Numbered from the stretch's first letter, positions 4,863 through 23,580 are shown. The stretch: 64,000 nucleotides of DNA from Candidatus Latescibacterota bacterium (GCA_965208835.1 OZ242358.1:320001-384000), one strand, 5' to 3'. The notes: generated by a model from the letters alone, not told the origin. Program-made: numbers and translations.

Positions 4863-7304
4863 ATGGCATTGAAGAAATCCCAACTCTATTCATCGCTCTG
4901 GCAAAGCTGCGACGAGTTACGTGGCGGCATGGACGCGTCTCAGTACAAAGACTACGTCCTGACCCTTTTGTCTATGAAGTATGTCTCTGACAAACACGCC
5001 GCCGACCCTAACGCGCTCATCGAAGTTCCTCCAGGGGGCGGCTTTGCGGACATGGTGTCGTTGAGAGGCGACAAGGAAATCGGAGACAAGATAAACAAGA
5101 TCATCGGAAGGCTCGCAGAATCGAACGACTTGAAGGGCGTCATCGATCAGGCGGACTTCAATGACGAGAGTAAGCTCGGTTCGGGAAAGGAAATGCAGGA
5201 CCGGCTTTCCAAACTGGTTGCCATATTCGACGGTCTGGACTTTCGGGCCAACCGCGGTGGTGGCGATGATCTGCTCGGCGACGCGTACGAGTACCTGATG
5301 ATGCATTTCGCTACAGAGTCGGGCAAGAGCAAGGGGCAATTTTACACGCCCGCCGAGGTCTCCCGGATCATGGCGAAAGTGATCGGAATCGGACCGGACA
5401 CCCGCCAGGACCAGACCATCTACGATCCTACCTGTGGCTCAGGCTCGTTACTGCTCAAGGCCGCGGACGAGGCGCCAAGCGGCATCACTATCTATGGGCA
5501 GGAGATGGACAACGCCACCTGGGCACTGGCTCGAATGAATCTGATCCTCCACGGCCACCCGACCGCAGAACTGTGGCGCGGCAACACGCTGGCTTCACCT
5601 TATTTCAAGAGTCCTGACGACAGTCTCAAGACGTTCGACTTCGCCGTCGCGAATCCGCCCTTTTCGGCAAAGGCCTGGACCAGTGGCCTCAATCCGGAAC
5701 ACGACGAATACGGTCGGTTTGTATACGGTATACCCCCGGCAAAGAATGGTGACTATGCCTTTCTCTTGCACCTCATTGCGTCGCTAAGGAGCAACGGAAA
5801 GGGTGCGATTATTCTCCCGCACGGCGTCTTGTTCCGCGGGAACAAGGAAGCCGATATCCGCCGAAACCTTATCCGGCACGGCTTTATCAAGGGTATCATC
5901 GGCCTGCCTGCCAACTTGTTTTATGGCACGGGCATTCCTGCCTGCATACTGGTTATTGATAAGGCGAACGCACACGCTCGCAAGGGAATCTTCATGATCG
6001 ATGCGAGCAAGGGATTCCTCAAGGATGGCAATAAGAACCGCCTGCGAGCACAGGACATCCACCGGATTGTCGATGTGTTCAACAGGCAGATCGAGACGCC
6101 TCGATATTCCCGTATGGTGCCTGTAGCTGAGATTGGCAATCCGTCTAACGACTATAACCTCAACATCCCACGATATATTGATTCGAGTGACCCGGAGGAT
6201 CTGCACGATCTTTACGCCCACCTGCACGGCGGTATTCCAAACCGGGACCTCGACGCACTTGGCACTTATTGGGAGGTTTTTCCCTCGTTGCGTCAGTCGT
6301 TATTTGTAGGCAATGGTCGTCAGGGCTACAGCGACGCCAGGACTGAGACGCAGGACGTGAAGGCCACGATTCTGAACCACGTGGAGTTTAAGACCTATTG
6401 TAAACGGGTGTTGGACATTCTGAACAATTGGCGTGAACACCAGGATCCGCGCCTCAAGGGGATTGAAAACGGTACCGACCCACAAAATATCATCCAAGCG
6501 TTATCCGAAGACCTGCTTGCTGGGTTCTCCAACCTGCCGTTGATCGACACGTACGACGTATATCAGCGATTGATAGACTATTGGGACGGAGTCATGCAGG
6601 ACGATGTATATCTCATCACGGAAGATGGTTGGATCAAAGCGGCGAAGCCGCGTGGGATAATTCAAGACAAAGAGAAACGGATTGAAGAGACCCCAGATCT
6701 GACCATCAAGCGGACGAAATACAAAATGGATATGATCGCTCCCGCGGTGCTCGTCGCGCGCTACTTCGCTGCCGATCAAGCGAACATCGACGCATTACAA
6801 ACCGTTGAAGAGGCTGCGACCAGCGAGCTGTCTGAGTTTGTTGAAGAACACACGGGCGAGGATGGGTTGCTGCAGGACGCAACGAATGACAAAGGAAGAG
6901 TCACCAAGACCGGGGTGACGATGCGGCTCAGGATAATCCGGGATGAGCCGGATAGCGTCGAAGAACGAGACATTCTGACACGCTTTATGGATCTGACGAA
7001 GGAAGAGTCGAAGGCAAGTAAGGATTTAAACGACAGCAAATCCGCGTTGGATTACAAGGTACTAGCCCGGTATCAAACGCTAACCGAGGACGAGATTAAG
7101 TCACTTGTGGTCGACGACAAATGGTTTGGAACAATCTACGCCACGATTCTCGAAGAGGTGCAGCGGCTTACCCAGCAGCTTACCGATAGAATAGGGGAAC
7201 TGGAAAAGCGGTACGCTCGAACGCTTCCTGAGTTGGAGCGGGAGGTCTATAGATACAGCGCGAAGGTCAAGGGCCACCTGAAGAGAATGGGGCTATCACT
7301 GTGA
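4863..7304 (+). CDS. hsdM: Type I restriction-modification methyltransferase subunit M
   Basis: GQFYTP, motif I DPTCGSGS, motif IV NPPF, LPHGVLFRG, YNLNIPRYI. Confidence 0.96.
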   Translation: MALKKSQLYSSLWQSCDELRGGMDASQYKDYVLTLLSMKYVSDKHAADPNALIEVPPGGGFADMVSLRGDKEIGDKINKIIGRLAESNDLKGVIDQADFNDESKLGSGKEMQDRLSKLVAIFDGLDFRANRGGGDDLLGDAYEYLMMHFATESGKSKGQFYTPAEVSRIMAKVIGIGPDTRQDQTIYDPTCGSGSLLLKAADEAPSGITIYGQEMDNATWALARMNLILHGHPTAELWRGNTLASPYFKSPDDSLKTFDFAVANPPFSAKAWTSGLNPEHDEYGRFVYGIPPAKNGDYAFLLHLIASLRSNGKGAIILPHGVLFRGNKEADIRRNLIRHGFIKGIIGLPANLFYGTGIPACILVIDKANAHARKGIFMIDASKGFLKDGNKNRLRAQDIHRIVDVFNRQIETPRYSRMVPVAEIGNPSNDYNLNIPRYIDSSDPEDLHDLYAHLHGGIPNRDLDALGTYWEVFPSLRQSLFVGNGRQGYSDARTETQDVKATILNHVEFKTYCKRVLDILNNWREHQDPRLKGIENGTDPQNIIQALSEDLLAGFSNLPLIDTYDVYQRLIDYWDGVMQDDVYLITEDGWIKAAKPRGIIQDKEKRIEETPDLTIKRTKYKMDMIAPAVLVARYFAADQANIDALQTVEEAATSELSEFVEEHTGEDGLLQDATNDKGRVTKTGVTMRLRIIRDEPDSVEERDILTRFMDLTKEESKASKDLNDSKSALDYKVLARYQTLTEDEIKSLVVDDKWFGTIYATILEEVQRLTQQLTDRIGELEKRYARTLPELEREVYRYSAKVKGHLKRMGLSL

Positions 7305-7325: not shown

Positions 7326-8171
7326 GTGTCTGCTTCAGATGCCCAAACACTCCCAACCGTCCCGTTCGGACGATATCGGATCAGCCGGCTTATCATGGGC
7401 GACAATCCGATCTATGGATATTCACACTTCAATCAGCTGCTCTCGGAACATCAGAAGGAAGCCAATACATCCGATCAGGTGATCGCGACCCTGCGCCGCG
7501 CCGAGGCAGTGGGCATCAACGCCTGGCAGAATACTCTGACCGACCGATCTGCCGCCGATCTTCAACGATACCGTGACGAGGGAGGTACAATCCATTACTT
7601 CTGTCTCAGCGGCGGTGGAAACTGGTATGACGATCCCTCGCTGATCGACGAAGCCGCCAAACACGGTCCGATTGGTATGGCGCCCCATGGTAGCGGTGTC
7701 GCAGGGCGATGTTTGAAGGAGAATCGCCTCGGGCATCTTCAGGATATCCTCAAGCGCATTCGGAACACCGGTGCCATGGTCGGCCTATCGGTTCACAATC
7801 CCCGCATCATCGATATTGCCGAAGAAGAAGATTGGGATATCGACTACTACATGACCGCCCTGTACTATCTGGAAGGCGCACGAGAGGAATTCGAACGACA
7901 ATTCGGTTATCCGCCGCTCGGTGAAATCTACCTCCGCGAACATCGCGACCGAATGTGTCGCATTATAAGACGCACCTCCAAACCCTGCATCGTCTTCAAA
8001 GTCCTCGCCGCCGGACGTTCGATTGGTTCCCGGAATCGGATTCGTGAAGAATTCGCGTATGCCCTCGATAACATCAAGGCCAACGACGTCCTTCTGGTCG
8101 GGATGTATCAGAAATTCAACGATCAACTGGGCGAAAACGCGGCGATCGTAGCTGAATTGTGTCATGGATAG
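7326..8171 (+). CDS. Hypothetical protein, aldo/keto-reductase-like TIM barrel
   Basis: N-terminal LPTVPFGRYRISRLIMGDNP and C-terminal KPCIVFKVLAAGR resemble AKR-like oxidoreductases; GAGGAG RBS before GTG. Confidence 0.6.
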   Translation: MSASDAQTLPTVPFGRYRISRLIMGDNPIYGYSHFNQLLSEHQKEANTSDQVIATLRRAEAVGINAWQNTLTDRSAADLQRYRDEGGTIHYFCLSGGGNWYDDPSLIDEAAKHGPIGMAPHGSGVAGRCLKENRLGHLQDILKRIRNTGAMVGLSVHNPRIIDIAEEEDWDIDYYMTALYYLEGAREEFERQFGYPPLGEIYLREHRDRMCRIIRRTSKPCIVFKVLAAGRSIGSRNRIREEFAYALDNIKANDVLLVGMYQKFNDQLGENAAIVAELCHG

Positions 8172-8239
8172 TCAAGTGTGAGTCAGCGGCAGTTTATCTA
8201 CAGGCGTTGTTATGCAAAGATTGTGTGCGAGTATATCTG

Positions 8240-9598
8240 ATGAACAATGAACCCGATTCCATGGGCAAACGCCTTGACGTCGGACATAAACAATCGGGGA
8301 ATTTGCCGGTGGGTTACAAGCGAACTGAACTCGGTCTACTGCCTGACACGTGGGACGCAGTGCTTCTCGGTGACCTGTTCGTTTTCAAGAATGGCTTAAA
8401 CAAAGCCAAGCGTTTCTTCGGTACCGGGACACCTATCGTCAATTACATGGACGTTTTTGATCGCCCGGGGCTTAGTGCGGACGACCTATCAGGCAAGGTT
8501 TACCTCAGTCCTGAAGAGATCAAGAAATATGAGGTGCGGCAGGGAGACGTTTTCTTTACGCGTACTTCCGAGACTATAGAGGATGTTGGTGTTACATCCG
8601 TAATGCTCAACGAGCCCCGTGATACCGTGTTCAGTGGTTTTGTTCTTCGCGCCCGGCCGCGCGATGGTCGACTTGACAACAGCTACAAACAGTATTGCTT
8701 TGGACCCAGAGCAGTTAGGTCCCAGATCGTATCAAATGCAACATACACAACCCGTGCTCTGACGAATGGTCGATCCCTATCGGCAGTGTGGATCCCAGTT
8801 CCACCGAAGCCTGAGCAACGTGCCATCGCCGAGGCATTGTCGGATGTGGATGGTTTGCTTGCGGAGTTGGATGCGCTGATCGCCAAGAAGGGAGCCATCA
8901 AGCACGCCGCTATGCAGCAACTCCTCAAAGGCAAGAGCCGTTTGCAGGGGTTCAGCGGGGCGTGGCAGACTAAGCGGTTGGGAGATATGGGACGCTGCCT
9001 ACGCGGTGTTAGCTACGATCCGACGACAGACTTGTCTAGCTATGATAAAGACAGCACGGTAAGGCTTCTTCGATCGAGCAATATCCAAGATGCTGTCGTG
9101 ACGCCAACAGATGTCCATTATGTTGAAGCGCGAAAAGTGTCCGAGTCCCAAGTTATGCAACATAATGACATACTCGTCTGTATGGCGAATGGCAGTAAGG
9201 AGTTAGTCGGAAAAGCCGGGCTTTTTCGCATCCAAGATGGATATGCCTATACCTTTGGAGCGTTCATGGGATGCTTTCGCATCGAACTAACTATTGCTGA
9301 TCCGAGGTATGTATTTTATCTCTTCCAGTCATGCGAATTCCGCGACTTTGTTGGCCTAATCTTAGCTGGATCAAGCATCAACAATCTAAAGCCAAGCGAT
9401 ATCGAATCGGCTGAATTCCATATTCCAGACAGAAATGAACAACACGCAATCGCAGGCGTCCTCTCCGACATTGACACCGAGGTCGCCGGCTTGGAAGGAC
9501 GCAGGGAAAAGGCTTTCCTAATCAAGCGAGCCATGATGGAGCAACTTCTAACCGGGCGGGTGCGGCTGATCGAGGCAGAAGGAACAGAGGATGGCTAG
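8240..9598 (+). CDS. hsdS: Type I RM specificity subunit S
   Basis: GYKRTELGLLPDTW start, two TRDs, repeated conserved regions PPKPEQRAIAEALSDVD and PDRNEQHAIAGVLSDID, C-terminal MEQLLTGRVRL. Start codon uncertain (8159, 8240 or 8261). Confidence 0.93.
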   Translation: MNNEPDSMGKRLDVGHKQSGNLPVGYKRTELGLLPDTWDAVLLGDLFVFKNGLNKAKRFFGTGTPIVNYMDVFDRPGLSADDLSGKVYLSPEEIKKYEVRQGDVFFTRTSETIEDVGVTSVMLNEPRDTVFSGFVLRARPRDGRLDNSYKQYCFGPRAVRSQIVSNATYTTRALTNGRSLSAVWIPVPPKPEQRAIAEALSDVDGLLAELDALIAKKGAIKHAAMQQLLKGKSRLQGFSGAWQTKRLGDMGRCLRGVSYDPTTDLSSYDKDSTVRLLRSSNIQDAVVTPTDVHYVEARKVSESQVMQHNDILVCMANGSKELVGKAGLFRIQDGYAYTFGAFMGCFRIELTIADPRYVFYLFQSCEFRDFVGLILAGSSINNLKPSDIESAEFHIPDRNEQHAIAGVLSDIDTEVAGLEGRREKAFLIKRAMMEQLLTGRVRLIEAEGTEDG

Positions 9599-12178
9599 CG
9601 TCGAGCAGGAAATCCGTAATTGGCTTCATCAGCAACAGGATTGGATTCAGGAAGCAGTTGAGAAACTGCTAGCGTCAGGTAGTTTGGAGGATAACGACAT
9701 CCAGGCCATCTCGGATCGTCTTAAGACCCCAGATGGGCAGCAGATAACGACTCACCGCAACTTCGAGGGTATTGGAAATTCCTCCTCATCCACAACCGAC
9801 GTTCACCTCCTTTCAATTGGTGATATCTGCGGAATCGAAAATCTATGTCCGCATCGTCCCCTTACGTTCGGAACCGGAAATCTCGCCGTGATCTACGGAC
9901 CCAACGGTTCGGGAAAATCCGGTTACACGCGCATCCTCAATAGAGTGTGCGGGAAACCGCGTGCGAAGGAGATCAAGCCCAACGTATTCGATAGTCGCCC
10001 TGCGAATCAGCAGTGTCGGATACGTTACGCAATAGGGGAAGAATACCAATCAGTTATTTGGCGACCGAGCGACATTGCGTTAGAGGACCTAAGAGCTGTC
10101 GATATATTTGACGCTGATGCTGCCGCTTTCTACATCAGCGAGGAAAAAGCGGTCTCCTACATGCCTCAGGCGGTAACGATGTTTGAGGCGCTAGCAAGTG
10201 TTTGCGACAGGGTCAAAGAGAAACTCCAATTCGAAAAGAGTCGATTGGTCAGCCAGCTGCCTAATCTGCCGCCAGAATATAGGTCGACTCCTCCTGGTAA
10301 AACATATACCCAGTTGAAACACGACCTCACCGAGCAACAGATCCAGTGTTTGACCAAATGGGGAGACGATAACGAAGAGAAACTTGGAAAATTGACAGAA
10401 CGCCTTAGTGCGGACGACCCGGTAAAGCTGGCGAAGATTAAGCGCAGCACGATAAGCCAACTCGAACAATTAGAATCTCAGTTGACGAACGCGGCGGAAG
10501 CCACAGGCAAGCAACAGGTGGAGGCCCTTCGGACAGCTCGAGAAAACGCAAGTCAGAAACGCAAGATTGCCGAAGAGGCAACCAACTTAAGTAAGCCAAG
10601 CTAGGCGGTATCGGCACCGAAACATGGAACGCTCTATGGGAGGCAGCGCGTGATTATTCGCAAATTGCCTATCCAGGACGAGACTATCCCGTTACAGAGG
10701 ACGACGCGAGGTGCGTCTTGTGCCATCAGAAATTGGCTCACGAGGCACGGAAACGTCTGCAGGAATTCGAAACTTTTGTCCAGGATGTAGTTGAAACTGA
10801 AGCCAAGTCGGCTGAAAACACCTACCGTGAAACGCTGGCAAAACTACCGACCAAATGGGATGACGCGGAGATCCGAACTAGATGTGAAGCTGCCGGGTTG
10901 ACGGAGGGTTGTTGGATCGACAAGCTTAGATCCTTTTGGGACAGAGTGGACGAAACGTGTAAGGATCTCTTGAACGGTGAAAACGATTCAAGAGCTGTCG
11001 CCATAGAACGACCCGATGATCTCTTGTTCGAGATGGCAAAACGTTCCGAATTACTGGAACGGGATGCACTGCAGCTTGATGAGGATGCGGAGAATTTCGA
11101 TCGAGAACAGGCACGCCAAGACAAGCTGAGTTTAGAGGCTTTGCGTTGGACGGCACAGCAAGCGACTGCAATTCACCTCGAGATCGTTCGACTAAAGAAA
11201 ATCGAGGATTATGACGAATGGGAACGACTGGCAAACTCACGGAGAATATCCCTAATGGCTGGACGTGTGGCTGAGAGGGTAGTCACGCAGGCGTATGTGG
11301 ATCGGTTCAATCGAGAACTCAAGCTGTTGGGCGCGTCGCGAATAAAGGTCAAACTAACCAAGACCCAGACGAGAAAAGGGCAAGCACTCCATGGGCTCCG
11401 CCTGAAGGGTGTACAACCTACGACAGAGAATGCTCCCGAAGCGGTCCTGAGCGAAGGAGAGCGTCGCGTCGTTTCTCTGGCGGCTTTTTTGGCCGATGTG
11501 GCAGAGAAGCCCCATGCGGCGCCATTCATTTTTGATGATCCGATCTCGTCGCTGGACCAAGACTTCGAGGGGCATGTGGCGACTCGTCTTGCGCAACTGG
11601 CACAAAGCCGCCAGGTACTCGTGTTCACACACCGGTTGTCTCTCTATGGTGCGATGGAGGATGCCGCAAGAAAGGTTGGTGCAGTTTGGAAAGACAGACA
11701 CCTTCAGCAGTGCTGTATTGAGTCGTTCTCAGGGTCCGCAGGACACCCGGCGGATGACGCTGTCTGGAATGTCAACACGAGGAAGGGCAACAATATCCTT
11801 TTGGAACGCCTCAAAGAGGCCAAGAAGGCCGGCGAAACGGGCGGTTCAAATGCCTACCAGATCCATGCACAGGGGATCTGCACTGATTTTCGCAAGCTTC
11901 TGGAGCGGACCGTCGAAGATGACTTATTGAATCAGGTCGTACGGCGGCACAGAAGGAGTGTAACGACGGAAAATAGATTGAATCCACTTGCAAGTATCAC
12001 ACGTGGAGACTGCGAATTTATCGACAATCTGATGACCAAGTATTCCTGCTACGAGCACAGTCAGTCGATGGAAACGCCGGCTTTCATTCCCGATGAGCCG
12101 GAACTTCGCGCTGACTTGGAGTCGCTGAAAGCATGGCGCGAAGAATTCAGGAAGCGTCCGCCGGAGTCCGGCATATGA
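9591..12178 (+). pseudogene. RloC-like Rad50/SMC-type ABC ATPase with Zn-hook and HEPN-like C-terminus, split by a frameshift at ~10593-10601
   Basis: Walker A GPNGSGKS in ORF 9591-10604. The -1 frame continues AKLGGIGTETWNALWEAAR...RCVLCHQ (CxxC hook), then LSEGE signature, Walker B IFDDPISSLD, FTH and C-terminal FRKLLE...YEHS. Confidence 0.75.
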
Positions 12179-13345: not shown

Positions 13346-14122
13346 ATGTCCTTTGAGACCATAGAGCGAGACTTTCACGAGAAGGTCTCGGCTCAGATTC
13401 GGATTGCGGCCGAGGGTATGGAACGCTTCCGCGTGTTTACCCCGTTCATGTTCGACGACGGCGATCATCTGGACATCGTTTTAAGGAAGGACGGTACACG
13501 TTGGGTGCTTTCCGATGAAGCGCATACGTATATGCATCTGACATACGACATCGATGAGAAGGATCTCCATGGTGGCACGCGTCAAAAAATCATCTCAAAT
13601 ACACTTTCCATGTTTCAGATCGAGGATCGCGACGGAGAGTTGATACTCGACGTGCCGGAGGAACGTTACGGTGACGCACTGTATTCGTTCGTTCAGGGGC
13701 TACTCAAGATATCTGACGTTTCGTACTTAACTCGGGCAAGGGTTAGTTCCACATTTATGGACGATTTTCGTACGGTGATGAGTAATGCCCTACCTGAAGA
13801 GCGCAGAGAGTTTGACTGGAGCGATCCTTTAAGGGATCCTCAAGGAAAGTATACGGTTGACTGTCGAGTCAACGGTATGCAGCGGCCCTTGTTCGTTCAT
13901 GCCCTTGCCAACGACGGCAGGACCCGCGACGCCACGATCTCGCTTCATCAATTCGAACGGTGGGAAATACCGTTTCGTTCACTCGCTATTTTCGAAGATC
14001 AGGAGTCCATCAGTCGTAAGGTGTTAGCCCGCTTCAGTGACGTCTGCGAGAAGCAATTCTCCAGCCTCACTGCAAATCAAGAGAGGATAACGCGCTTTCT
14101 GAGCGAGAACATATCGGGATAA
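13346..14122 (+). CDS. DUF1828/DUF1829-like protein
   Basis: FRVFTPFMFDDGDHLDIVL...WVLSDEAHT matches the DUF1828 pattern; the C-terminal half (GKYTVDCRV) is DUF1829-like. Confidence 0.7.
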   Translation: MSFETIERDFHEKVSAQIRIAAEGMERFRVFTPFMFDDGDHLDIVLRKDGTRWVLSDEAHTYMHLTYDIDEKDLHGGTRQKIISNTLSMFQIEDRDGELILDVPEERYGDALYSFVQGLLKISDVSYLTRARVSSTFMDDFRTVMSNALPEERREFDWSDPLRDPQGKYTVDCRVNGMQRPLFVHALANDGRTRDATISLHQFERWEIPFRSLAIFEDQESISRKVLARFSDVCEKQFSSLTANQERITRFLSENISG

Positions 14123-14341
14123 ACCACGATTTAAGTAGACTTGCTTAGATCGCCTTGGCGGAGTTGTGCCGGGACAGGATCCGTTCTGTCAAAAAGGGAG
14201 TGATGCTGCAGCTTCTTCCTAGACGGATGAGCCTGATCGAACTGAGTTTTAGATGGCACAACGGGCCAACGTTAGACACACGGAACCGAGTTTCTTCAAT
14301 TACAGACCTGTGATGCCAAAACACAGATTTCAGGAGGCATT

Positions 14342-15304
14342 TTGATGGTCAATGCCGTAAATAGCCAGCAAGAGTCAGCGCCAACGATTGTTGAGGACGA
14401 ACACTTTCCGGGGCTATATCAGAGTGCCGATCGGTCCTCGATCTCGGCACAGCGGCGCTATATTCACTTTCATCGATGGCATTTATTCTGTCTTATCTTT
14501 GGGAGCGTTAGTGTCGCCATAGCGACGAAATTTCCAGTTGCCGCCACATGGACCTACGTTCTCCTAGCGATCGTTCTGGCAATTGGCATCTTTCTTACTC
14601 TGATATCCCGGGTCCGTCGGGATAATGAAGTTTGGTTTGACTGTCGGGCGATTGCTGAGTCAACAAAGACCGCCACATGGCGATTCATGATGAAGGCTGA
14701 ACCATTCAAGGATGACAGTACGTCTGAGCAGTCATTTCTTGAGAAACTTCGGCAAATTAGAGGGGCGAGACCTTCCAGCCCGAAGGATTTAGCGCAAAAC
14801 CTCGATGCAAACGCTCAATCCGTTAGTGGTTTTATGAATGAAATTCGTCGGAAATCCGTGGAAGAACGGCGGAACCTATATCTTGAGTCGCGGCTTCGCG
14901 ATCAAAAAACCTGGTATTCAAATAAAGCCATCTTCAATTCAAGGAAGGAAAATCGTTGGTCTTGGACAGTTGTTGTGCTACAGATTTCCGCCATTGTTTT
15001 TGCGATTATTCAGGCGTGTTTGAGTGGCTTACCATTAAACGTGGTCCCATTGTTGATGACTTGCGCTGCTTCTGCGGTCGCCTGGAGCCATATGAAGCGC
15101 TACAGTGAGCTGGCTCAGTCCTATTCGCTCGCCGCCCAGGAACTCGGAGATCAGGAAACAGTCGCGTTGGATATAACGGAAGAGGCTGATTTCCTCGAAC
15201 TCGTGGAGCAGGTCGAGGAGACTATCTCTCGTGAGCACACTATGTGGTGTGTACGGCGAAATGTAATTTTCGGTCCAACCCACGCGGACGACGAAATGGC
15301 GTAA
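14342..15304 (+). CDS. DUF4231 / tandem SLATT-domain membrane effector (4 TM)
   Basis: FPGLYQSADRSSISAQRRY + 2 TM + WFDCRAIAESTKTATWRFMMKAEPF; then YLESRLRDQKTWYSNKA + 2 TM + LAQSYSLAAQEL...VEETISREHTMW. Confidence 0.85.
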   Translation: MMVNAVNSQQESAPTIVEDEHFPGLYQSADRSSISAQRRYIHFHRWHLFCLIFGSVSVAIATKFPVAATWTYVLLAIVLAIGIFLTLISRVRRDNEVWFDCRAIAESTKTATWRFMMKAEPFKDDSTSEQSFLEKLRQIRGARPSSPKDLAQNLDANAQSVSGFMNEIRRKSVEERRNLYLESRLRDQKTWYSNKAIFNSRKENRWSWTVVVLQISAIVFAIIQACLSGLPLNVVPLLMTCAASAVAWSHMKRYSELAQSYSLAAQELGDQETVALDITEEADFLELVEQVEETISREHTMWCVRRNVIFGPTHADDEMA

Positions 15305-15353
15305 AGTCAGTATTCTGTTCCGAAACTTACTCTTCGATGGACAGAAGTCTTAC

Positions 15354-16418
15354 GTGGCGTTCTTCAGATTCAAGCAATCAAGGATGATTAGGATGACAAT
15401 CCAACATTGCGATGGAGCCAAATACCTTAACGTCGAATCCTCTACGGCAATCGAACGAAGCCAGGAGTTATACATCGCTGAGACAACCGTTCAACTACCT
15501 TGTTTCTTTCCTTCAGTTTCGAGCGTGAAGACAAGCCTATCGCCGGTCAGTTACGCTGACTTTCTGACCGTTACTGGTCATCCACTATTTTTAGCCTCTG
15601 CATATGATTTAGCCCATTGTCCTGATGATCAGCGCCCGGGCATGGAAACTGCCCTTAATAGACGTATAGATAGCGGTGCCGTTGTACTTATTGATAGCGG
15701 AAACTACGAAAGCTATTGGAAACAAGATTCCGATTGGGGACCGGCTGATTTTCATAAGGTCGTGCAATCCTATCAACACGATCTCTGCTTCTGTTTTGAT
15801 AACCTGATGCCACCTGACTCTCCGAAATTGATCTCCGACGATGTCGTGGCAGGTGTAACAAGAGATCAGGAGAATGCACAGACAACAGTGCTTCCGATAG
15901 TCCATGGCAACGCGGAAGCACTGCCTGATGCGGCGCGATTAACAGCGGAAAAGCTCTACCCTTTATTGTTGGCTGTCGCGGAACGAGATTTGGGTGAGGG
16001 AATTCTCGATCGGGTTCGCACCGTACGGAGAATCCGAGTAGCGTTAAACGCATTAGGCTTCTATTGCCCGCTTCACCTGCTTGGAACCGGAAATCCGATT
16101 TCAATCATTGCCTATACATTGGCAGGAGCCGATAGTTTTGATGGATTGGAATGGTGTCAGGCGGTCGTTGATCACGAGAATGGCAGGCTCTTACATTTTC
16201 AGCAATGGGATTTGATCCGAAACCAAACAGAGTGGGGTCAATCTCCCGTACTACCGTACGTCCAATCTGTCTTAATGCACAATCTGGTTTTTTATCGCGA
16301 GTTCATGGTAGGGTTTCAGGAAGCACTGTATACCGGAAGAGTTGAATCGTTCGTACAAAAGTATGTAACTAAGGAACAATTGGATCTACTATTGCCTGCT
16401 ATCGAAGGAGTTCAATAG
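15354..16418 (+). CDS. tRNA-guanine transglycosylase (TGT)-like protein, Cap10-like
   Basis: TGT barrel motifs in order: LPCFFP, LIDSGNY, CFD, PIVHG, LHLLGTG, GADSFDG, HNL. Lacks the CxCxxC Zn site. Start may be 15384 or 15393. Confidence 0.8.
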   Translation: MAFFRFKQSRMIRMTIQHCDGAKYLNVESSTAIERSQELYIAETTVQLPCFFPSVSSVKTSLSPVSYADFLTVTGHPLFLASAYDLAHCPDDQRPGMETALNRRIDSGAVVLIDSGNYESYWKQDSDWGPADFHKVVQSYQHDLCFCFDNLMPPDSPKLISDDVVAGVTRDQENAQTTVLPIVHGNAEALPDAARLTAEKLYPLLLAVAERDLGEGILDRVRTVRRIRVALNALGFYCPLHLLGTGNPISIIAYTLAGADSFDGLEWCQAVVDHENGRLLHFQQWDLIRNQTEWGQSPVLPYVQSVLMHNLVFYREFMVGFQEALYTGRVESFVQKYVTKEQLDLLLPAIEGVQ

Positions 16419-16419
16419 C

Positions 16420-17133
16420 TTGGCGCCGAAAAATTTCACGCTACTTTCTATCGAACAAGCGATCCGCGATGTGTGCAACACATTACAAGAACGCCCGACT
16501 GTGTCCTGGAGAAACCACAGCGAAGATGAACTGTGGAGAGAGCTTGTGTCATGTATCCTGGGTAGTCGGGTAAGAGTCAAGGCTGTTAATGCTGCCATCG
16601 AACGCATGAGCAGTATGTGTCTGTTGACGCGACCCCATCCACGCGCTTGTTTTAATCAACTTGAACAGGACACTATAACAGCGCTTACGGGAGGTTATCC
16701 TTTTTTTCGTGTCCGTGCCAATCAGATTCGGCGGGCGGCAGAACACATATACACTTCCCGAGGGTCAATTCTAAACCTGCTTAATGACTTAGATGACGTT
16801 TGTATAGCTCGAAGACTGTTAGTGCGAGAGGTTCCGGGTCTGGGACCGAAACAGGCAAGTCTTTTCCTCCGCAACATATGTTTCGCAAAGTACATTGCGA
16901 TCTTGGATGTACATATACTGACTTATTTGCGGTGGATAGGCATTACAGACTCATCGCTAAAATCGATTCCGAATCTAGGCCAATACGAAGCGTTGGAAGG
17001 CGCCTTTATCGAACATGCTTGTGCATTCGGATACTCGCCTGACCGGTTCGACCTTGCAGTCTGGATTGTAATAAGGGTAGTAAAGGAGGAATCCAAAATT
17101 GCGGATCGTGACTCTTGTATCGGGTGGATTTGA
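16420..17133 (+). CDS. HhH N-glycosylase/DNA lyase (OGG-like), Cap11-like
   Basis: ELWRELVSCILGS, HhH motif VPGLGPKQASLFLRN with catalytic-type Lys, AILDVH with Asp, C-terminal DLAVW. Confidence 0.85.
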   Translation: MAPKNFTLLSIEQAIRDVCNTLQERPTVSWRNHSEDELWRELVSCILGSRVRVKAVNAAIERMSSMCLLTRPHPRACFNQLEQDTITALTGGYPFFRVRANQIRRAAEHIYTSRGSILNLLNDLDDVCIARRLLVREVPGLGPKQASLFLRNICFAKYIAILDVHILTYLRWIGITDSSLKSIPNLGQYEALEGAFIEHACAFGYSPDRFDLAVWIVIRVVKEESKIADRDSCIGWI

Positions 17134-17695
17134 TTCAACTCTTGTGAGCGTGATGGCGAAAGAGGAGGGAGCAGAGCTGTTTCCGCTTTTTGTTGATTAC
17201 GGCCAACTTGCCGTGCGCAATGAATGGGCGGCCTGCAAGCGACTTCACTCACAATTCGGTCTACCACCTGTTACGTACATGGATTTGTCTGGGTTTGGTA
17301 AGACGATCTCGAGTGGTCTCACAGACTGTAGTTTACGTATTAATGAAGATGCTTTTTTGCCGGGTCGCAATCTCCTATTTGTCTTGGCAGGAGCGGCTCA
17401 TGCTATTGATGTTCAGGCAAATAGCATCGCGCTCGGACTACTGAATCCCGCGGATCACATTTTTCCAGACCAAACGAAACAGTTTTTGGAAGAATGTGAA
17501 AGGATGATCGAGGTTGCGATGGGGAGCCGCATTCTTGTCCTTGCGCCTTTACTCGAGTTGTCAAAGCGAGATGTCTTGCTCTTGGCTAGCAAACGAGGGA
17601 TCACACAAGCCTATTCGTGTCATGCTGGTGGTGAAGAACCTTGTGGAGTGTGTATCGCATGCATTGAGATATATAATGCGAAAAAAAGGAGGTAA
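17099..17695 (+). CDS. QueC-like PP-loop ATPase, Cap9-like
   Basis: PP-loop VSGGFDS, VDYGQ, LPGRNLLF, FPD, APLLELSK and Zn site SC...PCGVCIAC. TTG start with AAGGAGG RBS, overlapping the glycosylase gene. Confidence 0.92.
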   Translation: MRIVTLVSGGFDSTLVSVMAKEEGAELFPLFVDYGQLAVRNEWAACKRLHSQFGLPPVTYMDLSGFGKTISSGLTDCSLRINEDAFLPGRNLLFVLAGAAHAIDVQANSIALGLLNPADHIFPDQTKQFLEECERMIEVAMGSRILVLAPLLELSKRDVLLLASKRGITQAYSCHAGGEEPCGVCIACIEIYNAKKRR

Positions 17696-17697
17696 TG

Positions 17698-18201
17698 ATG
17701 GGTGGCATCGGCAGTGGTAGAGGATTGGACCCAAACGAAATGGAGACACTCGAGCAGCGTGTCAGAAGGTCATTTAGGGATCGTGTCGACGAGCACAAAC
17801 GCAATGTGTTTATTAGTTTTACGTCGGATGATCTCAGTGAGGTTAACTTGCTTCGTGCTCAGGCGAGGAACCAAGACAGCAACATTAGCTTTAATGATTG
17901 GTCACTGAGAAAGCCGTTCGATAGTGAGGCAGCCGACTACATCAGGCGCGGCATCAGGGAACGTATTCGCCAATCCTCTGTGACTGTTGTTTATGTGTCT
18001 GAAAACACCGCTGATAGCAGATGGGTCAACTGGGAGATACGAGAGAGCCTTGCAATGGGGAAGGGCATCGTCGCCATGCACAAAGGAAATACACCGCCAC
18101 GAAGACTTCCTAAGGCGATAACCGAAAACAATATCAGTGTCGTACCATGGAGACAGGATCGTCTTGCAAGTATCATTGAGAGGGAATCCGAGAATCGTTA
18201 G
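17698..18201 (+). CDS. TIR domain protein (DUF1863/MTH538, ThsB-like) with Gly-rich N-terminal extension
   Basis: NVFISF, DWSL, IRERIRQSSVTVVYVS and SRWVNWEI with the catalytic-type Glu. AGGAGG at 17687-17692 is spaced for ATG 17698 (MGGIGSG). Confidence 0.9.
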   Translation: MGGIGSGRGLDPNEMETLEQRVRRSFRDRVDEHKRNVFISFTSDDLSEVNLLRAQARNQDSNISFNDWSLRKPFDSEAADYIRRGIRERIRQSSVTVVYVSENTADSRWVNWEIRESLAMGKGIVAMHKGNTPPRRLPKAITENNISVVPWRQDRLASIIERESENR

Positions 18202-18416
18202 AAGCGCAGCTGTAAACATAGCCTCGACATTTTTCAATGGTTATTGCTGGGATCTGTCCGCAAAAAGAATAGATATTGACGTCTCGGGTCAACGATTCAC
18301 GAAGCCAACAGGCGTATATGGAGATAAAGTGAATTTGAACGAACAAGATTTCTCGCGCCTCCTGGGATTGCTAAGTTGACTTCTTACAATAAGGTACTCG
18401 CTGAGGAGGGTCCCAA

Positions 18417-19778
18417 ATGTTGACACGGCTACGCCTGGAGAATTTCAAATCTTGGGAAAATACAGGTGACATAACGTTTAGGCCTATCACTGGCTTTTTC
18501 GGTACCAATAGTTCTGGTAAGACCAGCCTTTTTCAAGCTCTGTTACTGATGAAACAAACGATAGATTCCCCAGACCCTGGAATTGTGTTGCACTTCGGTG
18601 ATGAGAAAACACTAGTCGACTTAGGCGATTTTGAGAGTGTGGTCCACGAGCATGACACAGACCGAAGTATTAGACTGTCGCTGGGCTGGAACTCAGAGAT
18701 TGATCTGCCATTTCCGGATACGACTAACACTGGGACTCCAACGTCAGGTAACGAAATCGGATTTGATGTTGATCTCGCGGAGGAGAATGTCGGTTCCGGG
18801 AAGTCGCCAATACTCAGAAAAATGGCATATAGTGTCCGTGGAAGGCGGTTTGGTTTGGCGCAAGTACTGGGTAGGAAGGAACACGATTTGTTTGTCAGCG
18901 GTGCCGGCTTGGATAGGTCTCACCGCGTCAGCGATGACGGTCGGTTAGCTCGTTCGATTAAATTTCACGAGTTTAGATATTGGCTTCCTGAGTTTTTCAA
19001 AGACCCGGCTATAATGTATCGTCTCCAATACGCATTGGAGTTGTTCTTAAGGGATCTATTTTATCTTGGACCTCTCCGTGCCTACCCGTCTCGGATCTAT
19101 GCACGGTCTGGAGCACAACCTCGGGACATGGGCCCGGCAGGTGAATTCGCGGTAGACGCAATCCTATCGTCTCGCGAACGTGGCAGGAAGATTAGTCATC
19201 GTCGACGATCTCTAAGTTTCGAGAGATATGTCGCGCAATGGCTTATGCGTCTCGGATTGATATACGACTTTCGCGTAGTGGCATTAACTAAAGGGAGACG
19301 CCTGTTCGAGGTAAGGGTCCGAAAGTCACCCAATTCGGCGGAGGTTCTCCTCACGGACATCGGCTTCGGAGTTTCACAGATACTTCCCGTGTTGGTGCTT
19401 TGCTTCTATGTCCCACGTAAGTCCAAGATCATCTTGGAGCAGCCAGAGATTCACCTGCATCCCTCTGTGCAGGCGGGACTTGCCGATGTATTCGTCGACG
19501 CTTGGAAGCAACGCAATGTGCAAGTATTGTTCGAAAGCCATAGTGAGCATTTACTGCTCAGACTTCAGCGTCGTATCGCCGAGGGAAAAATAAAAAGAGA
19601 TGATGTTAGCCTCTTTTTCTGTTCGATGGACGACCGAGGTGTCTCGACACTCAGCCAACTCGAAGTAGACGATTTCGGGAACATTTCGAATTGGCCGAGG
19701 GATTTCTTTGGTGACCAATTCGGCGAGATTGCTAATATGAATGAGGCTGCGCAGAAGAGGAAGCGAGGTACTGTGTAG
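18417..19778 (+). CDS. ABC/AAA_21-type ATPase with C-terminal DUF3696
   Basis: LENFKS, Walker A GTNSSGKT, YLGPLR, DIGFGVSQILP, Walker B LEQPEIHLHP, ESHSEH, C-terminal FGNISNWPRDFF. Confidence 0.88.
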   Translation: MLTRLRLENFKSWENTGDITFRPITGFFGTNSSGKTSLFQALLLMKQTIDSPDPGIVLHFGDEKTLVDLGDFESVVHEHDTDRSIRLSLGWNSEIDLPFPDTTNTGTPTSGNEIGFDVDLAEENVGSGKSPILRKMAYSVRGRRFGLAQVLGRKEHDLFVSGAGLDRSHRVSDDGRLARSIKFHEFRYWLPEFFKDPAIMYRLQYALELFLRDLFYLGPLRAYPSRIYARSGAQPRDMGPAGEFAVDAILSSRERGRKISHRRRSLSFERYVAQWLMRLGLIYDFRVVALTKGRRLFEVRVRKSPNSAEVLLTDIGFGVSQILPVLVLCFYVPRKSKIILEQPEIHLHPSVQAGLADVFVDAWKQRNVQVLFESHSEHLLLRLQRRIAEGKIKRDDVSLFFCSMDDRGVSTLSQLEVDDFGNISNWPRDFFGDQFGEIANMNEAAQKRKRGTV

Positions 19779-19780
19779 GA

Positions 19781-20278
19781 ATGAGCAAGACGGAAATAGT
19801 AATGGATACGAATGTAGCTATCGTTGCAAATGGTGAAGCCGAACAGGCATGCGAAGACTGCATTTGTGCATGTATTGCAAGATTACGCCATATTATGGAT
19901 GAGTGCCGCCTCTTAGTGGACGACAATTACCGGGTCTTTAACGAATATCAGAGACACCTAAGACGCTCTGGACAACCAGGACCCGGCGACGCCTTTTTTA
20001 AATGGCTCTGGCTAAACCAGGCTAATAACGAACATTGCAGGATGGTTCCGGTGACGCCTCATGAAGATGATGATTGTGGATTCGAGGAATTCCCTGATGA
20101 TCCAAATCTAAGCACATTTGACCGATCTGATCGCAAATTTGTCGCAATAGCGTTGGCAAGCGGTACAGAGCCAATGGTTCTAAATGCCACCGATACGGAC
20201 TGGTGGTCGCACCGGCACGTATTAGGAAGACATGGCGTTGGGTTAGTCTTCATCTGTCCAGAACTGATGATCCGCTGA
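19781..20278 (+). CDS. PIN-like domain protein
   Basis: IVMDTNV N-terminal strand, EY, DRSDRKFVAIA and ATDTDW acidic pattern typical of PIN folds; begins 2 nt after the ATPase stop. Confidence 0.65.
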   Translation: MSKTEIVMDTNVAIVANGEAEQACEDCICACIARLRHIMDECRLLVDDNYRVFNEYQRHLRRSGQPGPGDAFFKWLWLNQANNEHCRMVPVTPHEDDDCGFEEFPDDPNLSTFDRSDRKFVAIALASGTEPMVLNATDTDWWSHRHVLGRHGVGLVFICPELMIR

Positions 20279-20430: not shown

Positions 20431-23400
20431 ATGACCTCAGTCGGCCAAAAGGAAATACGCACACAGCGACAGGTGATCGCCTTCTTCCGGTATGCGCTTG
20501 GATACAACTATCTCGGTGACTGGCAGGATCGCACCGATAACAGCAATATCGAGAAGGGGCTGCTTACCAATTGGTTGAAGCGAAATGGTCACCGCGATAG
20601 GGTAATCAACAAGGTACTGCGTGATCTCGACAAGGCAGGTGCAATCGGCGGCAGTAAGACGCTCTACGATGCAAACCGTGAGGTGTACGGTCTGCTTCGT
20701 TACGGCGTGAAGGTACGACCTGACGTCGGCGAACCGAACGTCACTGTCTGGCTGATCGACTGGGTGAATCCGGCAAATAACGACTTCGCGATCGCCGAGG
20801 AAGTTACGGTGTCAGATACAAACACCAAGCGACCGGACATCGTACTGTACGTTAACGGACTCGCGCTTGGGGTGCTGGAATTGAAGCGCTCGACGGTATC
20901 GGTTGCGGAAGGTATCCGGCAGAACCTCGACAACCAGAAGAAGGAGTTCATCCGGCCGTTTTTTGCCACGGTGCAACTCGTGATGGCTGGAAATGATTCC
21001 GAAGGGTTGCGCTACGGCGTGATCGAGACACCCGAGAAATACTGGCTGCGCTGGAAAGAAACGAACGGCATCCCGGCTGCTGGCGACAATCCTTTACTGC
21101 GCGAGTTGAGCCAGCTCTGCAGCAAAGAGCGATTACTTGAAATCGTACACGACTTCGTCGTCTTTGACGCAGGCGTAAAGAAGATTTGTCGCCACAACCA
21201 ATACTTCGGTGTTCGTGCGGCCCAGGAGCGAGTGAAAAGCCGGGAGGGCGGCATCATCTGGCACACGCAAGGCAGCGGCAAGAGCCTGACGATGGTCTGG
21301 CTGGCGAAATGGATTCGCGAGAACGTCACCGACTCAAGAGTCCTTCTCATCACGGATCGTACCGAGTTGGATGAGCAAATTGAGGCTGTCTTTAAGGGTG
21401 TCAGCGAGGACATCTACCGCACGAAGAGTGGCGCTGATCTCGTGCAGGTGCTAAATAGACCTGACGAATGGCTGATCGGCTCCCTTATCCACAAGTTCGG
21501 TGCAACCGAGGACATCAGCGAAAGAGAAATCGAGGACTATGTCGAGGAGATCAAGAAGAATCTACCCGGTGGGTTCCGTGCCAAGGGCGAGATTTTCGTT
21601 TTCGTGGACGAATGTCACCGCACCCAGTCCGGGAAACTACACGAGGCAATGAAGGCAATATTGCCGGGCGCGATGCTGGTCGGCTTTACCGGCACGCCGT
21701 TACTTAAATCAGACAAACGCCGAAGTATCGAGACCTTTGGTACCTACATCCACACCTACAAGTACGATGAAGCAGTTCGCGACGGCGTGGTACTGGACTT
21801 ACGTTACGAGGCTCGTGACATCGATCAGAATACCACCTCCCAGGAGAAGATAGACCAGTGGTTCGAAGTCAAGACGCAGGGACTGAACGATGTGGCGAAG
21901 GCACAACTGAAGCAGCGCTGGGGCACGATGCGGAAAGTGTTAAGCTCACGGGATCGCCTGGAGAAGATCGTCGCCGACATTCAGATGGACATGGAGATAA
22001 ACGACCGACTCAAGAGCGGTCATGGCAATGCCCTTCTGATTTCTGGCAGCATCGACTCCGCCTGCCGCTTCTTTGAGATGTTTCAGCAGACAGATCTGGC
22101 GGGAAAATGCGCCATCGTCACGTCCTACAAACCGGCGCCAGGAGACATCAAAGGTGAGGAGACCGGCGAAGGACTAACGGAAAAGCTGCGGCGATACAGT
22201 ATCTATCGAAAGATGCTTGCCGCGCACTTCGACGAGCCGGAAGACACCGCAATGAACAAGGTTGAACGGTTTGAACTCGAGGTAAAGAAGCGATTCGTCA
22301 AGGAACCGGGCCAGATGAAGCTGCTGATCGTGGTAGATAAGCTGCTGACCGGTTTCGATGCGCCATCTGCGACATATCTCTACATTGACAAACACATGCA
22401 GGACCACGGGCTTTTCCAGGCGATCTGCCGAGTCAATCGCCTCGACGGCGACGACAAAGAATACGGATACATCGTCGACTACAAGGACCTGTTCCGCTCG
22501 CTGGAGCAGTCAATTCAGGATTATACCGGAGGAGCCTTCGGCGGGTACGACCAAGCCGATGTGAAGGGGTTGCTCAAAGATAGACTCACGAAAGGTCGGG
22601 AACGGCTCGAGGAAACGCGAGAAGCGATCCGGGCGCTGTGCGAACCTGTCGCGCCGCCACGCGACTCTGCGTCATACCGGCGTTTCTTCTGCGGGATCGA
22701 AAGTGGCGATATAGAGGAACTCAAGGAAAACGAGCCGCGGCGTATAGCCCTTTATAAGCGGACTGCGGCGCTTTTGCGAGCTTACGCAAACCTGGCCAAT
22801 GAAATGCAAGAGGCAGGTTATAGTGAAGCCGAAACGCAGCAGATCAGGATAGAGGTTGATCACTACGAAAATGTCCGAAAGGAGGTCAAACTCGCGAGTG
22901 GCGACTACATCGACCTGAAGATGTATGAGCCCGCTATGCGCCACCTCCTCGACACATACATCCGCGCTGAGGATAGCGAAAAGCTCTCGACATTTGACGA
23001 CCTAACACTTGTGCAACTGATTGTCAAGCAAGGTGAAAACGCATTGAATACGTTACCTGAGAGTATCCGCAGCGATCCCGAAGCGGCGGCCGAGACGATA
23101 GAAAATAACATGCGTCGTCTGATCATCGACGAGACGCCCGTTAACCCGAAATATTACGGCAGGATGTCTGAGCTGCTGGACGCTCTGATCCTCCAGCGGA
23201 AGCAGGAACGTCTAGACTACAAGATGTACCTGGCAAGAATTGTTGAATTGGCCGGAAAAGTGACCAACCCTGAAACCGAGACGTCGTATCCATCGGAAAT
23301 TGACAGCAACACACTCAGGACACTATTCGACAACCTACAGGGCGCTACAGTTGGACAGGATAGACCGTATGCCGATTCGGCCATAGAACGTTCCAAGGAT

Positions 23401-23580
23401 GAACTGATCGAAAAGGCGGTCGCGGTCGATCACGCCATCCGAAGTGTAAAGAAAGCCGACTGGCGAGGAAACAAGTTTAAGGAACGGGAGGTCCGCAATG
23501 CTATCAAGTCTCAACTTGGTGACAACGACGACCTCGTATACCAGATATTCGAGATTGTAAAGGCACAGAGTGAATACTAA
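20431..23580 (+). CDS. hsdR: Type I RM restriction subunit R
   Basis: Nuclease RPDIVLYVNG...ELK, Walker A HTQGSGKS, DECH, GFTGTP, LLTGFDAP, QAICRVNR. Confidence 0.96.
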   Translation: MTSVGQKEIRTQRQVIAFFRYALGYNYLGDWQDRTDNSNIEKGLLTNWLKRNGHRDRVINKVLRDLDKAGAIGGSKTLYDANREVYGLLRYGVKVRPDVGEPNVTVWLIDWVNPANNDFAIAEEVTVSDTNTKRPDIVLYVNGLALGVLELKRSTVSVAEGIRQNLDNQKKEFIRPFFATVQLVMAGNDSEGLRYGVIETPEKYWLRWKETNGIPAAGDNPLLRELSQLCSKERLLEIVHDFVVFDAGVKKICRHNQYFGVRAAQERVKSREGGIIWHTQGSGKSLTMVWLAKWIRENVTDSRVLLITDRTELDEQIEAVFKGVSEDIYRTKSGADLVQVLNRPDEWLIGSLIHKFGATEDISEREIEDYVEEIKKNLPGGFRAKGEIFVFVDECHRTQSGKLHEAMKAILPGAMLVGFTGTPLLKSDKRRSIETFGTYIHTYKYDEAVRDGVVLDLRYEARDIDQNTTSQEKIDQWFEVKTQGLNDVAKAQLKQRWGTMRKVLSSRDRLEKIVADIQMDMEINDRLKSGHGNALLISGSIDSACRFFEMFQQTDLAGKCAIVTSYKPAPGDIKGEETGEGLTEKLRRYSIYRKMLAAHFDEPEDTAMNKVERFELEVKKRFVKEPGQMKLLIVVDKLLTGFDAPSATYLYIDKHMQDHGLFQAICRVNRLDGDDKEYGYIVDYKDLFRSLEQSIQDYTGGAFGGYDQADVKGLLKDRLTKGRERLEETREAIRALCEPVAPPRDSASYRRFFCGIESGDIEELKENEPRRIALYKRTAALLRAYANLANEMQEAGYSEAETQQIRIEVDHYENVRKEVKLASGDYIDLKMYEPAMRHLLDTYIRAEDSEKLSTFDDLTLVQLIVKQGENALNTLPESIRSDPEAAAETIENNMRRLIIDETPVNPKYYGRMSELLDALILQRKQERLDYKMYLARIVELAGKVTNPETETSYPSEIDSNTLRTLFDNLQGATVGQDRPYADSAIERSKDELIEKAVAVDHAIRSVKKADWRGNKFKEREVRNAIKSQLGDNDDLVYQIFEIVKAQSEY

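Follow-up and report, generated by a model that had tools for sequence, protein, structure and literature searches.

In type IV cyclic oligonucleotide-based antiphage signalling systems (CBASS), the QueC-like protein Cap9 puts 7-amido-7-deazaguanine (NDG) on Gly2 of the cGAS/DncV-like nucleotidyltransferase (CD-NTase), and the TGT-like Cap10 binds the tagged tail. An M(G/S)G(G/S)GG N-terminal extension is universal in these systems, and Cap11 occurs in about one third of the operons (49 operons counted; Wassarman et al., 10.1101/2025.04.06.647259). The combination of a TIR protein with a SLATT protein has been named type VII Thoeris, with canonical cyclic ADP-ribose (cADPR) as the signal, in a 2025 preprint that also describes Thoeris operons containing cap9, cap10 and cap11 (Fig. 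6G and S10B). That report is based on sequence and on AlphaFold3 models, which for another organism gave interface predicted template modelling scores (ipTM) of 0.79 for TIR-Cap10 and 0.62 for TIR-Cap9 (bioRxiv 10.64898/2025.12.03.692087). Here we analyse a cassette of five genes at 14342-18201 in a 64,000-nucleotide stretch of DNA (the window) from a Candidatus Latescibacterota bacterium (GCA_965208835.1, OZ242358.1:320001-384000). The operon is real and widespread, and its layout was already noted from sequence by the 2025 preprint. Judged by its gene content and by analogy, it is likely to be a Thoeris-type abortive-infection system in which a SLATT effector (the type VII composition) is combined with the Cap9/Cap10/Cap11 module known from type IV CBASS. 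A sequence-only reading of the window had proposed a new and unnamed system; at the level of composition this claim falls, since the preprint already names TIR+SLATT and describes Thoeris operons that contain cap9, cap10 and cap11.

The preprint's operons are the closest match: TIR, effector and cap9, cap10 and cap11 stand in one operon without a CD-NTase, and their account in the preprint consists of two sentences and models. With type VII Thoeris (ThsB + ThsH) the cassette shares a ThsB-type TIR, the presumed signal maker, and a SLATT-domain membrane effector. As described in the preprint, type VII is a two-gene core, whereas the window has three extra genes between effector and TIR, and its TIR bears a 35-residue N-terminal extension; ThsH was compared by description only. 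With type IV CBASS (structures 9ntn and 9nto) it shares the Cap9, Cap10 and Cap11 families and a signalling enzyme that begins with a Gly-rich acceptor tail (in the cassette a predicted one), but here this enzyme is a TIR protein and not a CD-NTase. Type II CBASS with Cap2/Cap3, and the Thoeris operons with Cap2/Cap3 mentioned in the preprint, are alike in combining covalent priming of a signalling enzyme with a reversing enzyme. The chemistry is unrelated, E1/E2-like adenylation at the C-terminus as opposed to a deazaguanine amide at the N-terminus. A survey of the QueC family (PMC13082051) does not mention TIR, SLATT, Thoeris or OGG, and no published experiment on an operon of TIR with Cap9/Cap10/Cap11 was found in the literature, of which reviews and a QatBC study were not covered. 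The features of the cassette are as follows.

14342..15304, + strand: tandem SLATT membrane effector, ThsH-like (likened by description); Pfam, NCBIfam, hydrophobic segments.
15354..16418, + strand: Cap10-like TGT-fold protein; Pfam, PDB match 9ntn_A, residue alignment.
16420..17133, + strand: Cap11-like helix-hairpin-helix (HhH-GPD, Ogg2-type) glycosylase/lyase; Pfam, profile match 3fhg/3fhf.
17099..17695, + strand: Cap9-like QueC-family enzyme; Pfam, PDB match 9nto_B, residue alignment.
17686..17692, + strand: Shine-Dalgarno sequence AAAGGAGG before the TIR gene; read from the sequence.
17698..18201, + strand: ThsB-type TIR signalling enzyme; Pfam ThsB_TIR, invariant Glu.
17698..17802, + strand: N-terminal extension of the TIR protein, residues 1-35, MGGIGSG followed by a helix, predicted deazaguanylation acceptor; homolog starts, AlphaFold2 model.

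The five co-oriented open reading frames (ORFs) encode 320, 354, 237, 198 and 168 or 167 amino acids (the last counted from 17695 or 17698) and are separated by a 49-nt gap, a 1-nt gap, a 35-nt overlap and, with ATG 17698, a 2-nt gap; coordinates, order and spacings were all as first described. Pfam assigned SLATT_3 (3.2e-33) and SLATT_1 (5e-32)/DUF4231, TGT (1.3e-10), Ogg-HhH (3.7e-22), QueC (2.9e-34) and ThsB_TIR (PF08937, 1.5e-24). The PADLOC check proposed earlier was run: its TGT (6.7e-23), QueC (1.3e-27) and ThsB (1.6e-18) models matched, and the SLATT and OGG-like proteins had no PADLOC match. The QueC-, TGT- and Ogg-like proteins all score under the NCBIfam housekeeping equivalog cut-offs, and elsewhere in the genome there are two QueC copies that score better and one true Tgt. 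The cassette genes are thus extra, divergent paralogs, and the host plausibly has its own deazaguanine pathway as a source of the base. Comparison with relatives L002 and L003 gave dN/dS values of 0.08-0.26 for each of the five genes, which places all of them under purifying selection, so the ORFs are not chance. A scan of 13900-18700 for sigma-70 promoters and terminators gave counts that did not differ from those of shuffled sequences and carries no weight.

The feature that ties the TIR protein to the Cap enzymes is its N-terminus. The Shine-Dalgarno sequence AAAGGAGG lies 5 nt from ATG 17698 and just 2 nt from ATG 17695, which argues for a start at 17698 and a product that begins MGGIGSG, with Gly at position 2. 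By Pfam, PDB alignment and the AlphaFold2 model the TIR domain starts only at about residue 35-36. In the model (mean predicted local distance difference test score, pLDDT, 76) residues 1-11 are unstructured, residues 12-27 form a low-confidence helix and the core begins at residue 35. Of 867 candidate proteins in a homolog search, 836 reached E <= 1e-3. In the best 120 of the 836 (161-175 aa, 61-92% identity) the start is MG in 119 (111 MGG and 8 MGS) and MVG in one. A putative acceptor tail of the M(G/S)G(G/S)GG type sits on the TIR protein and not on a CD-NTase. A type IV CBASS on a Bacillus plasmid, reached via a distant Cap10 match, offers a comparison: its annotated 'CBASS oligonucleotide cyclase' starts MGGSGG, and a helix starting LEQ follows about 10 residues later, much as in the window TIR. 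As a comparison of motifs, this suggests that the TIR tail is akin to CD-NTase tails. The 38-residue N-terminus by itself had no match in a PDB search. In a phage collection there were just partial, tail-less TIR-domain matches, beginning at query residue 34-37, in Staphylococcus and Streptococcus phages. Within the domain, all 23 sequences compared keep E113 (in WVNWEI), whose counterpart in 8fz9_A, the best PDB match, is also a Glu; this entry has been linked to a B. cereus TIR/TPR system (10.1101/2023.05.26.542521). The window protein is the only ThsB_TIR in its genome. From the tail and by analogy with CBASS, the helper genes probably tag the first glycine of the TIR protein with a deazaguanine base.

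Active-site residues of the three helper enzymes are largely kept. The Cap9-like protein has Cap9 (9nto_B, 6e-13) as its best single-sequence PDB match, and its S8/D12/S13, R90, F122 and D124 correspond to Cap9 S18/D22/S23, R86, Y115 and D117, so that six of six named residues are kept or conservative (Y115 to F122). Cys 174, 182, 185 and 188 are invariant. For the Cap10-like protein the best PDB match is Cap10 itself (9ntn_A, 3e-7 with the single sequence and 3.5e-13 with the profile). Here D114/S115, D149, H241 and D263, which vary little or not at all among 25 sequences, align with Cap10 D73/S74, D122, H226 and D248; five of the six named residues, including the catalytic Asp/His, are present. 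The Cap11-like profile matches the N-glycosylase/DNA lyase structures 3fhg/3fhf (3e-25), and none of 25 sequences deviates at K144 (in GxGPKQAS) or D163. At the other end of the operon, the SLATT protein contains SLATT_3 (residues 23-177) and SLATT_1 (residues 180-302), both above the NCBIfam cut-off, and four hydrophobic segments in a 2+2 pattern. Its start is likely ATG 14345, to judge from an AGGAGG at 14332-14337 that ends 7 nt before it.

A profile scan of genome contigs with the TIR alignment, taking one genome per species, found 259 relatives in many bacterial phyla and in archaea, the nearest being Latescibacterota metagenome-assembled genomes (MAGs) at 87-89% identity. The best 80 of the 259 loci were analysed by searching all their ORFs with the five window proteins; the Cap genes could be assessed in the 65 loci whose TIR gene is preceded by 3.7 kb or more (the informative loci). 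Cap9, Cap11 and Cap10 occur together in 56/65, which bears out the expectation that the synteny without a CD-NTase would be conserved elsewhere. The others have Cap9 and Cap10 only (3/65; L011, L021, L039), Cap9 and Cap11 (1/65; L046), a truncated Cap9 (1/65; L072) or no Cap genes (4/65; L031, L036, L062 and the remnant L030). Cap11 is thus present in 57 of the 61 Cap9-bearing informative loci, as opposed to roughly one in three operons of type IV CBASS. The order effector-cap10-cap11-cap9-TIR recurs in 56 of the 65 informative loci, and the placement of the TIR gene right behind cap9 does not change from phylum to phylum. The tail is associated with Cap9: of the 76 loci with 700 nt or more of upstream sequence, 67 have both and five have neither (the counts ignore kinship). 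The remaining four have Cap9 and were missed by the tail pattern, two reading MGGGGG by eye (L037, L077), one MGN (L021) and one frameshifted (L028). A gene homologous to hsdM, hsdS or hsdR of the window lies no more than 8 kb away in at least 35 of the 80 loci.

The effector slot could be read in 54 loci with room for the gene. A SLATT/DUF4231 effector was found in 49 of them, in 24 as a tandem SLATT protein like that of the window and in the other 25 as a single, ∼ 164-aa DUF4231/SLATT protein (phmmer detected 20 of these and a profile the other five); five had none, and two of these five carry a MAP3K_TRAF_bd/TPR-S protein instead. Eleven loci contain a second ThsB-type TIR of ∼ 130-200 aa (L004, L005, L006, L007, L008, L010, L014, L015, L018, L033, L065), which in eight lies between the SLATT gene and cap10 (L004, L005, L007, L008, L014, L015, L033, L065). 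The one that was scanned, the 132-aa protein of L004, has its domain from residue 7 and is hence tail-less.

Four TIR proteins without tail and Cap genes (L031, L036, L062, L068) look like one clade. Where the Gly tail would be, they have another N-terminal extension in common, ∼ 65 residues long (PKRGKLTIRQIE...), and they occur in type I restriction-modification (RM)/ygjP contexts. In L031 an ORF resembling HEPN_AbiU2 lies upstream of the TIR gene. In the fifth locus counted without tail and Cap9, from another Latescibacterota MAG (L030:7284-8342), with the same DUF6978/DUF1828/ygjP neighbours as the window, the cassette has shrunk to one ORF that joins Cap9 residues 21-196, the PP-loop gone, in frame to TIR residues 55-164; from its sequence this ORF is a deletion remnant. 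A related layout with a TIR-TGT fusion is found in cultured rhizobia, on the Rhizobium sophoriradicis plasmid NZ_CP104156.1 (16237-27214; L086). There the order is carbohydrate kinase, a 467-aa TIR-TGT fusion, OGG-like, QueC-like and a 155-aa TIR starting MGGGSSG, with a TRAFs-binding/TPR protein, a tandem SLATT protein and a further TIR on the opposite strand.

We propose the following mechanism, every step of which is drawn by analogy from type IV CBASS and type VII Thoeris; what is observed here are the sequence features. The TIR protein would be translated from ATG 17698 and lose Met1, exposing Gly2. The QueC-like Cap9 would use ATP and 7-carboxy-7-deazaguanine from the host to join the base to the amino group of Gly2 by an amide bond, giving NDG. 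The TGT-like Cap10 would bind the NDG-tail and keep the TIR protein primed but inactive. Having retained the catalytic Asp/His, Cap10 may, on infection, transfer the base through N9 onto a target, and the OGG-like Cap11 would undo this transfer, limiting autoimmunity. The freed or activated TIR would then turn NAD+ into a cyclic form of ADP-ribose as the signal; by the type VII precedent, canonical cADPR is the likeliest. Finally, the tandem 2TM+2TM (transmembrane segment) SLATT protein would bind the signal, oligomerise and breach the membrane, so that the cell dies before the phage cycle ends. At the core of the sequence-only reading, a TIR enzyme is placed under the control of a 7-deazaguanine module and in turn triggers a SLATT effector, with no CD-NTase involved. 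This core draws support from the Gly tail, the synteny, the Cap9/Cap10/Cap11 residues and the lack of a recurrent CD-NTase among 199 flanking ORFs, and we regard it as consistent with the sequences.

Several observations weigh against this mechanism. The choice of the cADPR isomer is pure analogy. The window tail has Ile at position 4, where the published motif has Gly/Ser. In Cap10, the base-readout residue K154 is not conserved and has no aligned counterpart in the window protein (Leu180); an invariant His184 is nearby, in a poorly aligned region. The acidic helix with which Cap10 clamps the CD-NTase (E38/D42/D45) is not conserved either and reads A68/T72/G75 in the window, so the docking mode must differ. 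The Cap9-like family profile matches true QueC (2pg3, 9.6e-29) better than Cap9 (9nto_B, 2.4e-19). In the 11 loci with two TIR proteins the tailed one may not be the signal maker, or not the only one. Weakly in favour of the mechanism, co-folding of Cap10 with the TIR protein gave an interface score (ipSAE) of 0.53 (runs 0.59, 0.49, 0.53) against 0.00 for the best control; partner pLDDT was no lower than 73 and contact agreement no lower than 72%. On calibration, 58/80 solved complexes and 2/110 mismatches passed the threshold, with scores up to 0.60 counting as weak passes. The modelled interface is accordingly a weak pass and may owe its score to resemblance to the solved Cap10-CdnD complex.

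A bolder version of the mechanism can be formulated, although we think it rather unlikely to be correct as a whole. The Gly tail together with Cap9/Cap10/Cap11 would be a portable priming switch that has moved between unrelated CD-NTase and TIR enzymes, and activation would consist of Cap10 covalently inserting the deazaguanine-tagged TIR into phage or host nucleic acid, from which Cap11 excises it. A nucleic-acid target is pointed to because the Cap10 Asp/His pair is kept, because the Cap11 Lys/Asp pair is kept and Cap11 is near-obligatory, and because nesting in type I RM loci is frequent.

TIR domains can work as NADases, and the tailed TIR could itself be the effector, an NADase that depletes NAD+ and is switched by the deazaguanylation module. 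SLATT would then be a second or independent effector that receives no signal from it. The five loci without a SLATT match fit this idea, as do the 11 with a second TIR (described as tail-less and lying by the SLATT gene), which could make the signal there. We nevertheless judge it improbable. The protein matches the ThsB family specifically, the SLATT/DUF4231 gene is kept in 49/54 loci, the TPR-S/MAP3K_TRAF_bd proteins of two SLATT-less loci indicate that the effector slot is still filled, and the window genome has one TIR only.

A Thoeris pair with an adjoining Cap module also explains the data better than chance proximity of a TIR+SLATT pair to nucleic-acid-modifying enzymes, in which case the TGT, QueC and OGG genes would place 7-deazaguanine into DNA or tRNA in the manner of Dpd systems. 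All three enzymes keep residues typical of base-exchange or base-excision catalysis, the cassette lies within a restriction-modification operon and the profile of the Cap9-like family is, as noted, closer to QueC. Among PDB entries, however, the TGT-like protein matches Cap10 best, with no tRNA or DNA transglycosylase ranking higher, and a CxCxxC zinc motif is not visible in its sequence. The joint occurrence of tail and Cap9 (all five Cap9-less loci are tail-less) and the fixed TIR-after-cap9 order also speak against it. Dpd-type modification pairs a DpdA-like TGT with ParB-like DpdB and helicase/nuclease partners, and when the five genes and ten neighbouring ones were scanned with Pfam, no such partner appeared. 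We hold this explanation to be very improbable.

No CD-NTase was found: PF18144 (SMODS) had no match in the whole 5.18-Mb genome (97.8% complete), while a PF21654 search, which matched no control genome, carries no weight. In related loci, 199 flanking ORFs of 220-650 aa within ∼ 3 kb of the cassette were scanned with Pfam in two halves. The commonest families were Methylase_S (22), N6_Mtase (16) and HsdM_N (13), and no CD-NTase family was among the 25 most frequent shown per half (of 113 and 104), which leaves room for a single-locus occurrence. Despite sharing its three ancillary families with type IV CBASS, the cassette is hardly a decayed CBASS that lost its CD-NTase, given the SMODS-less genome, the 56 loci from many phyla with the same CD-NTase-less layout, the flanking families, the purifying selection on all five genes and the 29% identity of CBASS-linked Cap10 homologs as opposed to 36-38% for TIR-linked ones. 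The earlier statement that ThsA is absent stands for the SIR2 type, in that the sole SIR2_2 matches in the genome are ∼ 4 Mb away; Macro or SLOG families were not searched.

The cassette was correctly placed in a type I RM island from the outset. The segment 4863-24304 forms a single type I RM operon, in which hsdS and hsdR are separated by at least four passenger modules. HsdM is encoded at 4863-7304, HsdS at 8159-9598 and HsdR at 20431-23580, and the order is hsdM, hsdS, split PDC-S06, DUF6978, DUF1828/PDC-M24B, the cassette, HEC-03B/HEC-03A, hsdR and ygjP. The GC content is 0.48-0.53, compared with ∼ 0.6 in flanking housekeeping genes, and no tRNA gene was found in window positions 1-30000. 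Two ORFs (9591-10604 and 10718-12178) match residues 1-334 and 382-859 of the 862-residue PDC-S06 (PADLOC, 4.7e-101 and 5.3e-186). The pair at 9591-12178 is a split or broken PDC-S06 gene, or a two-gene form, inside the RM operon. Directly downstream of the cassette, an AAA_15/AAA_21+DUF3696 ATPase (18417-19778) matches PADLOC HEC-03B (2.8e-128), and its 165-aa partner (19781-20278) matches HEC-03A (1.5e-40). This is another candidate defence pair, and it is also found in L001 and L002.

For this window the main result is the correction of an over-rated claim of novelty. New here are the near-universal presence of Cap11 in TIR-linked loci, the fixed gene order, the frequent nesting in type I RM loci, the variable effector slot, with two SLATT forms and occasional TPR-S, and, on rhizobial plasmids, the layout with a TIR-TGT fusion. 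On the bolder reading, cassettes with a TIR could be commoner than those of CBASS (259 relatives vs 49 type IV CBASS operons), although databases and methods differ and the counts are not directly comparable. If insertion into nucleic acid were true, a protein-nucleic acid conjugate would serve as an immune switch. From type IV CBASS it is known that a protein can be tagged with a nucleobase by enzymes of the queuosine pathway, and the TIR cassettes would provide a second, independent substrate. Because they are widespread, small (∼ 3.9 kb) and almost always keep Cap11, these cassettes should be a good comparative system for the target of the tag and for what Cap11 reverses.

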